64,000 nt of DNA from an uncultured Pseudomonadales bacterium (GTDB taxonomy: Bacteria; Patescibacteriota; Microgenomatia; UBA1400; UBA1449), in assembly GCA_964386355.1 (NCBI GenBank), contig CAYLQQ010000002.1, positions 45,374-109,373 on the forward strand, in the 5' to 3' direction. The translations under genes were made by a program, and so were the position numbers. The notes beneath the pieces are model-generated. The model was not told where the DNA came from, searched no databases, and saw only the letters and a list, made by a program, of their open reading frames with translations. Below are positions 8,165 to 10,555 of the stretch, one piece after another. How positions within the stretch are numbered: position 1 is the stretch's first letter; the number at the start of each line of letters is the position of its first letter.

Positions 8165-10555
8165 ATGAAATATCCGCAGCTCAAAAATTCACTAATTCCA
8201 TTTCTACTAGCTATTTTTGTAGTATTTGTTCTGTATAAAAGTTACAACATTCCTGAGCATCCCGCCTTAGCCAGTGTTTTTTTGTTGTACCGCAGATATT
8301 TAACCCCGATTCTGCTAATGCTGCTAGTAAGCTGGCCATTATATTATTCATTTTTTCATAAATATAAAGCAAAAAAGATCTTAGAATTTAAAATATATCA
8401 GCTTTTATTGATCTTTGCCTTCCATATAATACTTCTTATCCTGATTAAATCCTTATTCACTCACATTATTCAACCTGAAGAAGTATTTGCAGTCGTTACA
8501 AAACTGTTATTTAGAATAACATTGATCTTCTTATATATAGGTATTCACACGGTCGCTTTTTATTTGTTTGGAAGAAGGGTACTTCATATTCTCTTGCTGC
8601 GATTTACAGGTTTGCAACTTGCGCTCATAAGTATCGGTTTGGGTTTGGTGGCTTTTACATCAGCACAACTCATTCTAAGTTTATTGGGTAACTTAGTTGC
8701 GTTTACTGTTACGGTAACCATTTTAGTAATGATACTTATTGGCAGACCTTTTTTATCTGATATTGCTAAAGCCAGTGCGTACAGTGTTACGCTGTATGAT
8801 CACTCAAAGCATTCACTCATTTCGTTACTTCTTATATTCTTGACAGCATTTCAGAGCCTTATTAGCTTTATATTGCTGATGGGACCTGCTCCGGTTGCCT
8901 ATGATAGCTTGTCTTACTATTTCAACCTTGCAAAAGAGCTTGGAACTACGGGAAGGTACGTACTTGGACAATATTCAATGCCTATTGAATTACTGTTTGG
9001 TTCCGGGTTTGCGTTAACTAGGGGAGCGGGTCTAGCTGAACTATCCGAGGCTATTACTATGCACTGGGCTTGGTGGAGCGGTTTACTGGGCTGGCTAGCC
9101 ATATATGCAATTGGAGTATCTTTAAAAAAACCAAGCGCAGGAGTACTTGCTGCGACCACGTATTACACAATGCCAATTATTGGCCTCTATATGAGCTCAG
9201 AACCCAAAAGTGAAACATTTATTGTTTTTAGCTACGCTCTGGCAATTCTCAGTATTATTACGTGGCTGTCTAAACATTCTATAAAACTGCTTTTTGTTGC
9301 TTGTCTACTGTTATGGTACACATTTGCAATCAAACCCACAGGTGCCTTTGGCATTGCGGCACTATTGATCAGCTTAGTACTTGTAATTGCATATCAAAAA
9401 AAACCAAAAGCAATTATCCACTTAGTTTTAGCTAATACGTTTGCATGCATGCTTGTCGTGTTGCCCTGGTTTATGCTCCATATATGGGAGCAAAATTTGA
9501 GCATGCATCAGCTAATAACTAGATTACGAAACGGTGATTACCACGGTACACTTTTGGTAGGCCGCCATCCAGTTCTTAGGCAAAGACAGTTAGATTTTGC
9601 TCAGCTGCCCAATGCAGCAGGTTCATCATCGGGATATGCTGAAGACTATGACCGGTATAAAGTGAAAGATAGTAGTTTATTTGGTTTGGAAAAAGTATTC
9701 CCAAAGGTATTTGGCAATACAGATCTGATTCAAACATTAAAAATACCATGGAACGTATCGACTGTGCAGATACTTAAATCTCTACATTTTCTTATCAGTC
9801 CTATCTATTTAGCCTTGTTTCCTGCTCTGATCTTGTTTATATTTTCTTATTTCAAAAAACAGGAAACACAACCTAAATCTGCAGTAGGCCTGGTGAGTTT
9901 GGTGGCCATATTGTACCTTCTAATCTGGTGGAAATGGGGTATGTCAGTAGTGTGGTACGGTATTGGTCTATTTGTACCATTGGGAATTGCAGTTGCAATT
10001 GCATGGAACAGGATTGCAAATGATAGTCACCATATAGTGAGGATCATCGGGAATATATGCATCGTAATTCCAGTATTAGTCGGCTTATATTTACAATTAT
10101 CACGTTTTGGCAATCCATCAGTGCTTGGTTATACTGTGGGTAAACTGACAAAAGCAGAAGCAATGCAACAACTGACAGGCAATTATTCTGATTTGGCAAA
10201 CATAATAAATGCAGATCCTCAAATACAGTCCGGAGAGCGTTACGTGCTGCTTTCTGGAACGTTTTTACATTATTTTATTGATGATTATTACTCTACGGCA
10301 CTTAATGATCCCTGGCTTGATTACATGAATGCAGTTATGGTTAGCTCGGGAGGTGATACTGACTTAGCATTGCAAACATTTCAGCGACTGGGTGTAAAGT
10401 ATATAGTCACCAGTTTAGGTGTTCCCTATGAAGATAGAAGTGAAGCACAAACATTAACCAAAAAATTTGATACTTTTATGAAGTTTGCTAGTCAGAAGCT
10501 GATTCTGGTAACATTTAATGAGAATAAAGGTGTCATACTATTACAAGTCCCCTAA
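8165..10555 (+). CDS. 796-aa polytopic membrane protein of unknown function embedded in the atp operon (GT-C-like architecture, tentative)
   Basis: Roughly 18-20 hydrophobic helices by eye, followed by a ~150-aa soluble C-terminal domain. It starts 7 nt after the atpG stop and ends 2 nt before the atpD start. No motif recognised. Confidence 0.6.

Follow-up and report, generated by a model that had tools for sequence, protein, structure and literature searches.

A predicted GT-C glycosyltransferase is encoded between the gamma and beta subunit genes of an abnormal F-type ATPase

In a 64-kb stretch of contig CAYLQQ010000002.1 (assembly GCA_964386355.1), which we call the window, a gene for a large membrane protein lies between atpG and atpD, the genes for the gamma and beta subunits of an F-type ATPase. 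What is this protein, and is it part of the ATPase? We refer to its open reading frame (ORF) as X, and we label the loci of relatives L0xx and their proteins P00xx. The first-pass annotation of this DNA placed X in no known family and put it forward as a candidate membrane partner, stator, or assembly factor of the ATPase. From sequence comparisons and a predicted structure, we conclude that X is a divergent GT-C protein of the GT39/PMT_2/ArnT-like type and that it carries the predicted catalytic aspartate of the family. This largely resolves the idea of a mystery ATP synthase subunit, as X belongs, if only distantly, to an enzyme superfamily that is well known. Its setting is unusual, in that a glycosyltransferase gene has been kept inside an atp operon through deep divergence.

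8165..10555, + strand: gene X, GT-C (GT39/PMT_2-like) glycosyltransferase homologue, 796 amino acids (aa), ATG start

We found the family of X through its distant relatives. A word-indexed homology search with X returned X itself and two homologues at 42 to 44% identity, and word-indexed searching with X and with a three-sequence profile gave only close orthologues and two marginal matches. An exhaustive HMMER search with the three-sequence profile retrieved 467 representatives at E <= 1e-3. These relatives are mostly 750 to 830 aa long and aligned over their full length. Among 61 relatives that were scanned, 42 matched PF13231 (PMT_2), 5 matched PF02366 (PMT), 2 matched a TMEM260-like model, and 1 matched GT87. 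The syntenic, next-closest orthologues scored above the PF13231 gathering score of 26.1 (P0030, 36.4 bits; P0032, 35.1 bits; P0033, 43.4 bits). NCBI gives the name "glycosyltransferase family 39 protein" both to orthologue P0032 and to P0037, a relative from Spirochaetota that is not linked to atp genes. X itself is below the PF13231 gathering threshold, and its membership comes from transitive homology together with fold. The PMT_2 matches of the relatives and the GT39 name of an orthologue supply the family that the first-pass annotation did not recognize.

We next considered the predicted structure of X. An AlphaFold model based on the 74-sequence alignment had a predicted local distance difference test score (pLDDT) of 93.2 and a predicted template modeling score (pTM) of 0.94. 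This is the model used here; with a three-sequence alignment only, the pLDDT was 43. Hydropathy analysis of X gave 20 hydrophobic windows, partly overlapping, and the model has about 17 to 19 membrane helices and an alpha/beta domain at residues ~650 to 796. This agrees well with the ~18 to 20 helices and the ~150-aa soluble C-terminal domain described at first pass. A Foldseek search of the PDB with the model gave 22 matches with E <= 1e-3, which were STT3, AglB, PglB, ArnT, DPY19, ALG9, and AftA. All are GT-C enzymes, so the GT-C-like overall build noted earlier was borne out. That annotation had proposed comparing X with subunit a, GT-C enzymes, and MFS and RND folds; GT-C enzymes were found, and no F-ATPase a subunit, MFS, or RND fold was among the matches. 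The C-terminal domain of X separately matched the globular domain of archaeal AglB (3vu0). The model contains both hallmarks of GT-C enzymes, an N-terminal seven-helix module and a first extracytoplasmic loop with two juxtamembrane helices, here aa 246 to 262 and aa 273 to 287. The predicted fold is unambiguously GT-C. The parts of X are as follows.

8165..8809, + strand: extra N-terminal membrane module, aa 1-215, about 6-7 helices (model helices H4-26 to H179-204)
8816..9034, + strand: GT-C transmembrane helix 1 (TM1, aa 218-237) and first extracytoplasmic loop (model secondary structure, hhalign, and conservation)
8903-8905, + strand: putative catalytic Asp D247, in the first loop (74/74)
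8918-8920, + strand: invariant Y252, in the first loop (74/74)
9018..9484, + strand: PMT_2-equivalent transmembrane core, aa ~285-440 (PF13231 matches of orthologues over equivalent residues; hhalign)
9491..9784, + strand: long extracytoplasmic loop, aa 443-540 (model; conserved E493, [D/E]494, R497, and Y498)
9785..10099, + strand: C-terminal membrane helices, aa ~541-645 (model; invariant W597 and Y598; contains RIIGN)
10113..10552, + strand: C-terminal extracytoplasmic alpha/beta domain, aa ~650-796 (invariant D715 and Y703)

The N-terminal module lies outside the canonical GT-C core, and the hhalign match to ArnT begins only at aa 248. Within this module, G136 and G160 are invariant (74/74). 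X and its family have the module in addition to what is present in ArnT, PMT, and STT3. X is a very divergent family member with a family-specific extra N-terminal module, and the superfamily to which it belongs was already known.

The conserved residues of X include a putative catalytic Asp. Alignment of the X-family profile with Escherichia coli ArnT by hhalign gave E = 7.7e-5 and placed X 248-438 on ArnT 31-225. ArnT D31-E-T-R-Y35-A aligned on X S248-L-S-Y-Y252-F, with Y252 on Y35. In the 74-sequence alignment, D247 and Y252 are present in every sequence, K348 and K390 in 73, [D/E]494 in 72, [D/E]346 in 71, and R497 in 68. [D/E]346, K348, and K390 belong to the PMT_2-equivalent core and have a putative role in lipid-phosphate binding. 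D247 follows the transmembrane helix at 218-237 and opens the loop that holds the two juxtamembrane helices, as the GT-C catalytic Asp does. In GT-C enzymes, the first loop begins with an acidic catalytic residue (the D of DE, DD, or DxD), and D247 is its putative counterpart in X. The first-pass annotation reported no convincing catalytic motif. We found that the invariant first-loop D247 falls on the DExRY motif of ArnT, and it was missed earlier because X has D-S and not D-x-D.

Two other motifs were considered and rejected. For an oligosaccharyltransferase (OST)-type WWDxG motif, X has PWLDY (aa 716-720), in which W717 (Y, Q, or L in other sequences) and Y720 are unconserved; around W717-L-D-Y, only D715 (74/74) and D719 (56/74) are conserved. 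The subunit a-like R626-IIGN of X has its R in 15/74 sequences and is a chance resemblance. With no a-subunit fold match and an unconserved Arg motif of the R-x-x-G-N type, X is in all likelihood not a structural substitute for subunit a, and the earlier proposal of an alternative stator or a-subunit replacement lacks structural support.

We then examined how X is joined to its neighbors. Between the atpG stop codon (TAG, 8156-8158) and the X ATG at 8165 there are 6 nucleotides (nt; CTATCC), and between the X stop codon (TAA, 10553-10555) and the atpD ATG at 10558 there are 2 nt (CT). These coordinates confirm the ORF limits first given. Consensus scans compared with shuffled sequence found no excess of promoter-like or terminator-like signals, and none at either X junction. 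On sequence grounds, the short gaps and the lack of such signals make it very likely that X is co-transcribed with the gamma and beta genes, as had been suggested. A Shine-Dalgarno (SD)-like sequence was found within 25 nt of the start in only 2 of the 16 window genes checked, and translation initiation in the source organism appears to be largely SD independent. Because 14 of the 16 lack an SD sequence, its absence before X and atpD is uninformative. Translational coupling of X with atpG and atpD is plausible. The public record starts X at M52 (8318), which gives 745 aa. Residues 1 to 51 are conserved, homologues can be aligned from the first residue onward, and they have the YKSYN motif in common; for these reasons, we prefer the long start at 8165. 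The public start is probably too far downstream.

To follow X and its linkage, we retrieved the loci of relatives with atpG as the anchor in genomes and with a c-subunit fusion, described below, as the anchor in metagenomes. The order gamma-X-beta was found in seven lineages (the window, L001/L004, L002, L019, L020, L090, and L091). In L021, the order is beta-X-epsilon, so that X has moved and is still inside the F1 cluster. The first-pass annotation had asked whether the atpG-X-atpD arrangement is conserved, and we found that the linkage is kept in eight lineages, one of them with this positional variant. It had also named two findings that together would speak against a role in the ATPase. 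One of them, a match to an unrelated enzyme family in which the catalytic residue is preserved, is what we observed; the other, an atp linkage not conserved in relatives, is not. The reading frame of X is intact at 794 to 814 aa in six full-length orthologue lineages, and the L090 copy is cut by the contig end. In L091 (GCA_012797845.1; 7035-9404), X is broken by one in-frame TAG at ~aa 321 ("...GKKVKN*TVGFLAIAV..."), and the two pieces are annotated as separate genes of 320 aa and 467 aa, with the flanking atp genes intact. This TAG is either a sign of a pseudogene or a sequencing error.

X is maintained by selection and changes quickly. Between the close orthologues L001 and L004, the ratio of nonsynonymous to synonymous substitution rates (dN/dS) of X is 0.17 (dS, 0.106), and X is therefore under purifying selection. 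The dN of X is about 6.5 times that of atpG. Identity to the window in L001 and L002 is 87 to 90% for atpA, 90% for atpG, and 92 to 94% for atpD, with 42 to 44% for X. In L019, L020, and L021, respectively, identity is 80, 68, and 67% for atpA, 76, 73, and 67% for atpG, 86, 86, and 82% for atpD, and 33, 30, and 28% for X. Evolution at this pace is more in keeping with an enzyme that modifies the cell surface than with a core subunit of the ATPase. In pairwise comparisons, the identity of X correlates with that of atpA (Spearman, 0.54) and with that of atpG (0.59), and the pattern fits one old insertion of X followed by vertical descent.

Outside this group, X was not found with the ATPase. Its next relatives, P0037 and P0044 (about 20% identity to X), are not atp linked, and the wider family reaches other phyla (Spirochaetota). 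In 14 more distant genomes found via atpG (Levyibacteriota, Dormibacterota, and others), gamma directly adjoins beta. Eight of these 14 were checked upstream of atpA and have canonical a, c, and b genes with the carboxylate in c; the sole case without a among those eight is L013, whose contig ends there. Gamma is also directly followed by beta in eight loci of closer lineages in which the atp operon is unsplit (L025, L028, L030, L031, L033, L034, L036, and L038), and the X-family hidden Markov model (HMM) had no match among the ORFs of these eight loci. As far as the gene orders indicate, X is confined to the split-operon subclade and does not co-occur with this ATPase in the way that a component of it would.

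The ATPase around X is itself out of the ordinary. Its genes in the window are the following.

5483..7180, + strand: atpA (F1 alpha, 565 aa; TIGR00962, 528.9 bits, over cutoff; Pfam)
7274..8158, + strand: atpG (F1 gamma, 294 aa; PF00231, 4.5e-44; TIGR01146, under its cutoff)
10558..11973, + strand: atpD (F1 beta, 471 aa; TIGR01039, 619 bits, over cutoff)
12063..12323, + strand: atpC (epsilon, 86 aa; PF02823; TIGR01216 positions 2-77 of 130)
28848..30809, + strand: c-subunit fusion, 653 aa (PF02369 [Big_1] and PF00137)
30886..31404, + strand: b-like subunit (N-terminal transmembrane helix and coiled coil)
31432..32010, + strand: delta/OSCP (PF00213, 2e-15)

Both atpA and atpD score over the NCBIfam equivalog cutoffs. 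The c fusion consists of a signal peptide, a Big_1 immunoglobulin (Ig)-like ectodomain of ~570 aa, and a C-terminal c hairpin, and its tail alone matched PF00137 with 31.2 bits against a cutoff of 24. Asp and Glu are both absent from helix 2 of the hairpin, and the position that is Glu in canonical relatives is Leu. The fusion has homologues in at least 86 full-length clusters at 46 to 82% identity, and a helix-2 acidic residue was found in 0/86. Several of these homologues are annotated as Candidatus Beckwithbacteria "ATP synthase F0 subunit C." Judged from its sequence, this c subunit cannot bind H+ or Na+. We found no paper in the literature on an Ig-fused, carboxylate-less c subunit, and these two features of the ATPase may deserve more notice than X itself.

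We found no a subunit in the window, nor at the roughly 12 operon loci that were covered in the lineage, a result that applies to loci and not to genomes. A tblastn search of the window with the canonical a subunit from L010 gave no match, and a six-frame scan of the window for R-x-x-G-N gave chance matches only, one of them inside X. Two early observations, that the only c-like protein lacks a carboxylate and that no a subunit is nearby, thus held. The usual operon of the lineage, seen in the eight unsplit loci, is c-fusion-b-delta-alpha-gamma-beta-epsilon without atpB. In the X-bearing clade, the operon is split, with genes for secreted proteins of 369 aa and 751 aa upstream of atpA and with c-b-delta elsewhere. 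In the window, the c fusion-b-delta genes are about 18.5 kb downstream of the F1 genes, and the c-b-delta order is the same in all relatives. With a carboxylate-less c and no a subunit in the operon loci, the ATPase is abnormal, and its predicted composition indicates that normal Fo chemistry has been lost.

Some further features of the F1 subunits were seen. AtpA has an N-terminal extension of about 60 to 80 aa before the beta-barrel domain; its Pfam match starts at aa 85, and its TIGR00962 alignment runs from aa 85 onward, at model position 24. Epsilon consists of the N-terminal beta-sandwich only, without the C-terminal helical domain. In L021, where X follows atpD, AtpD (6445-7974) has a Lys/Glu-rich N-terminal extension of ~40 aa and totals 509 aa.

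We favor the explanation that X is a co-expressed surface GT-C glycosyltransferase of the GT39/PMT_2/ArnT type and that its place in the operon gives it co-expression, not a proven mechanistic tie to the ATPase. We put the probability of this at roughly 60%. From the enzymology of other GT-C enzymes (ArnT, PglB, and PMT), we infer the donor type, the roles of the basic residues, and an outward-facing active site; X would use a polyprenyl-phosphate-sugar and glycosylate at the outer face of the membrane. X would sit in the cytoplasmic membrane and take the sugar from this donor, whose phosphate K348, K390, and R497 may hold. D247, with [D/E]346 and [D/E]494, would drive transfer to an acceptor at the outer face, and the C-terminal alpha/beta domain probably helps acceptor binding. 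X would have entered the F1 half of an already remodeled, split operon in a single event, before one Beckwithbacteria-like subclade diversified, and would have been inherited vertically since then. Being co-transcribed with gamma and beta, it would be made whenever the ATPase is made. A functional tie between X and the ATPase, if there is one, is more plausibly that of an enzyme acting on a surface acceptor than that of a structural subunit.

Known GT-C enzymes resemble X in part. ArnT (GT83) and PMT_2 enzymes, like X, have two juxtamembrane helices in the loop after TM1 and have an acidic residue and a Tyr at DExRY. In contrast to ArnT, X has the extra N-terminal module (~215 aa, 6-7 helices) and the C-terminal alpha/beta domain, both of which are missing in ArnT. 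X also has Ser as the second motif residue and is under all Pfam and NCBIfam thresholds, and its gene lies within an atp operon. The substrate of ArnT is lipid A, which the organism carrying X is unlikely to make. STT3, AglB, and PglB share with X a membrane GT-C core and a C-terminal extracytoplasmic globular domain, and the domain of X resembles that of AglB (3vu0). However, X lacks the conserved WWDxG, sequence identity is 10 to 13%, and their diphosphate-linked oligosaccharide donor is not indicated for X. PMT1/2/4, TMTC, and TMEM260 are connected to X by the two X-family relatives that match the TMEM260-like Pfam model, but X has no MIR or TPR domains, and protein O-glycosylation by X is putative. 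In humans, TMEM260 is an O-mannosyltransferase of the GT-C type that glycosylates Ig-like IPT domains specifically (PMC10214176). An Ig-like ectodomain is likewise encoded in the atp system of X.

Other comparisons concern the operon and the machine. Like X, atpI and atpZ/AtpR are membrane-protein genes co-transcribed with ATP synthase subunits without being canonical subunits. AtpI and AtpZ are small (about 100 to 130 aa) and are encoded at the 5' end, before atpB, whereas X has 796 aa and an enzyme fold and is encoded between gamma and beta. We found no precedent in the literature for a glycosyltransferase gene inside an atp operon. By analogy, the nearest conceptual counterpart of the system appears to be the F1-like X0 ATPases of Mycoplasma (Type 2 and Type 3; gliding motor and MIB-MIP associated), for which two reports describe a surface function (PMC3369863, PMC12994834). 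The Mycoplasma systems, like that of X, keep homologues of alpha, beta, gamma, and epsilon and have the normal ion-translocating Fo parts replaced by lineage-specific membrane or surface proteins. They differ in that alpha and beta here pass the atpA and atpD equivalog cutoffs and b, delta, and a c-like hairpin are retained. In the abstracts of these reports, no GT-C protein is among the Mycoplasma clusters.

The neighbors of the operon bear on what X might act on. Two secreted proteins are encoded next to atpA in the window.

1895..4150, - strand: secreted protein of 751 aa with no Pfam match, candidate surface acceptor
4229..5338, - strand: secreted protein of 369 aa with no Pfam match, candidate surface acceptor

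The two have in common a C-terminal domain of ~190 aa at 41% identity, and their genes are transcribed divergently from the atp genes. Orthologues of the pair adjoin atpA in L019, L021, and L091 and follow epsilon in L030, L033, and L034. Other GT-C genes occur near the operon in sister lineages.

L025, 6720-8765, 13156-15048, and 19374-21317: TMEM260-like GT-C genes flanking the atp operon
L029, 4329-8815: TMEM260-like GT-C gene or genes flanking the atp operon
L030, 6642-8606: TMEM260-like GT-C gene flanking the atp operon
L033, 6795-8798 and 17345-19372: TMEM260-like GT-C genes flanking the atp operon

One of the three copies in L025 lies between delta and alpha on the opposite strand. L028, L039, and L040 have instead a cytoplasmic GT4/GH57 pair at that upstream position. 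We considered the TMEM260-like neighbors as orthologues of X and rejected this, as the X-family HMM detects none of them. A gene of ~720 aa convergent on epsilon in L030, L033, and L034 was also considered as a GT-C candidate and is a TrwB/VirD4-like ATPase. The recurrence of GT-C genes near the operon is a suggestive theme, but the cases are phylogenetically non-independent and it is not universal.

Several observations weigh against our favored explanation. Some of them touch the assignment of X to GT-C enzymes. X itself had no match in Pfam and NCBIfam even at E <= 0.1, and profile searches of PDB sequences from two alignments gave only chance matches (E >= 0.65). The hhalign probability for the X family against ArnT is only 62%. 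In that alignment, D247 misses ArnT D31 by a single position, a shift no larger than the alignment error, and at motif position 248, which is D in 51/74 sequences, X has Ser and not Asp or Glu. The others touch the idea that the operon provides co-expression and nothing more. The F1 linkage outlasts the expectation for a random passenger, holding in eight lineages with atpA identity down to 67%, and X in L021 was relocated to the beta/epsilon junction yet retained in the operon. Four sister lineages have TMEM260/DUF2723-like GT-C genes flanking their unsplit atp operon. Among the large ORFs of the window, no GT-C other than X was found; there is no TMEM260-like gene, and the remaining large ORFs are housekeeping genes. 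Finally, the ATPase of the lineage that carries X no longer has normal Fo chemistry.

The linkage leads to the possibility that X is a dedicated enzyme partner whose acceptor belongs to the atypical ATPase system, which we regard as a real but doubtful alternative. Its place in the operon would then guarantee joint production of the enzyme and its substrate machine. The most attractive acceptor candidate is the ~570-aa Big_1 ectodomain of the c fusion. The fusion puts this domain outside the cell, on the side to which the active sites of GT-C enzymes are turned. Alternative candidates are the secreted proteins of 369 aa and 751 aa. The persistence of X in eight lineages, including a move that stayed inside the operon, its standing as the sole GT-C found in the window, and the specificity of TMEM260 for Ig-like domains all favor such a partnership. 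So does the fact that the X loci are exactly the split-operon loci and lack the TMEM260-like block of L025, L029, L030, and L033, where TMEM260-like enzymes would do the same job by non-orthologous replacement. However, one insertion with vertical descent explains the distribution, so that the eight lineages weigh about as much as one observation. The TMEM260-like neighbors are not homologous to X at the HMM level, and three unsplit lineages have the GT4/GH57 pair, so that GT-C adjacency is not universal. In L091, X has an in-frame stop while the atp genes are intact, and the acceptors named here are candidates. A wider and more tentative reading, which we consider unlikely, joins these elements into a non-ion-translocating, ATP-driven surface machine with GT-Cs as its dedicated accessory enzymes, X in the split-operon clade and the TMEM260-like ones elsewhere. 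The machine would consist of a carboxylate-less c ring with a ~570-aa secreted Ig-like arm on each subunit, F1, b, and delta, without a. The GT-Cs would O-glycosylate the Ig-like arms or co-encoded surface proteins, or the N-terminal module of X would dock on the ring.

Could X instead be a structural membrane partner, with its glycosyltransferase ancestry incidental? X would then take the place of a as the membrane stator or anchor that holds the b-delta stalk against a c ring devoid of carboxylates, or it would be an assembly factor. The want of an a subunit in the window and the operon loci, the carboxylate missing from all 86 c homologues, and the size, polytopic build, gamma-beta position, and extra 6-7-helix module of X would be in keeping with this. 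We think it very improbable, however, as X has no fold likeness to subunit a, its a-like Arg is poorly conserved, and its enzyme catalytic signature is strictly conserved. In most lineages that have this a-less, carboxylate-less ATPase, X is missing from the operon and its surroundings, which means that the ATPase machine does not need X. X also evolves several times faster than gamma, and one orthologue is broken by a stop codon. That stop codon and the low X identity between lineages might alternatively suggest a decaying, non-functional insertion, a pseudogenizing remnant left in the operon. We give this hardly any credence, since the frame is intact in the six full-length orthologue lineages, dN/dS is low, seven residues are invariant and more than 10 near-invariant across 74 distant homologues, and the model is confidently folded.

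What the locus means depends on the tie between GT-C enzymes and the ATPase. If there is one, these episymbiotic Candidate Phyla Radiation (CPR) bacteria would have put a rotary ATPase to a new use and given it a surface appendage that is glycosylated. The likeness to the Mycoplasma F1-like X0 machines would then be one of spirit, and X would offer a concrete, testable enzyme-substrate pair. Should the wider surface-machine reading be true, X would be the first known glycosyltransferase to be integrated, in both genetics and function, into a rotary ATPase. If there is no tie, X would show that tight operon embedding need not mean subunit status.

Some observations on the surrounding genes stand on their own. 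A TrwB/VirD4-like ATPase gene often converges on epsilon in unsplit loci. Upstream of the operon, the unsplit loci have a conserved divergent pair of Pfam-less proteins of 189 aa and 216 aa, the first of which has a homologue in the window.

28170..28760, - strand: 196-aa homologue of the 189-aa protein (no Pfam match for relatives)

We considered the 189-aa and 216-aa proteins as a hidden a subunit and rejected them, as they have no Pfam match. The 196-aa homologue was likewise rejected, as it reads as soluble and not hydrophobic. Elsewhere in the window, a protein of 764 aa (32996..35290, + strand) is a class I lysyl-tRNA synthetase (PF01921) fused to a C-terminal B3/4 domain (PF03483), a domain that normally belongs to the PheRS beta subunit.

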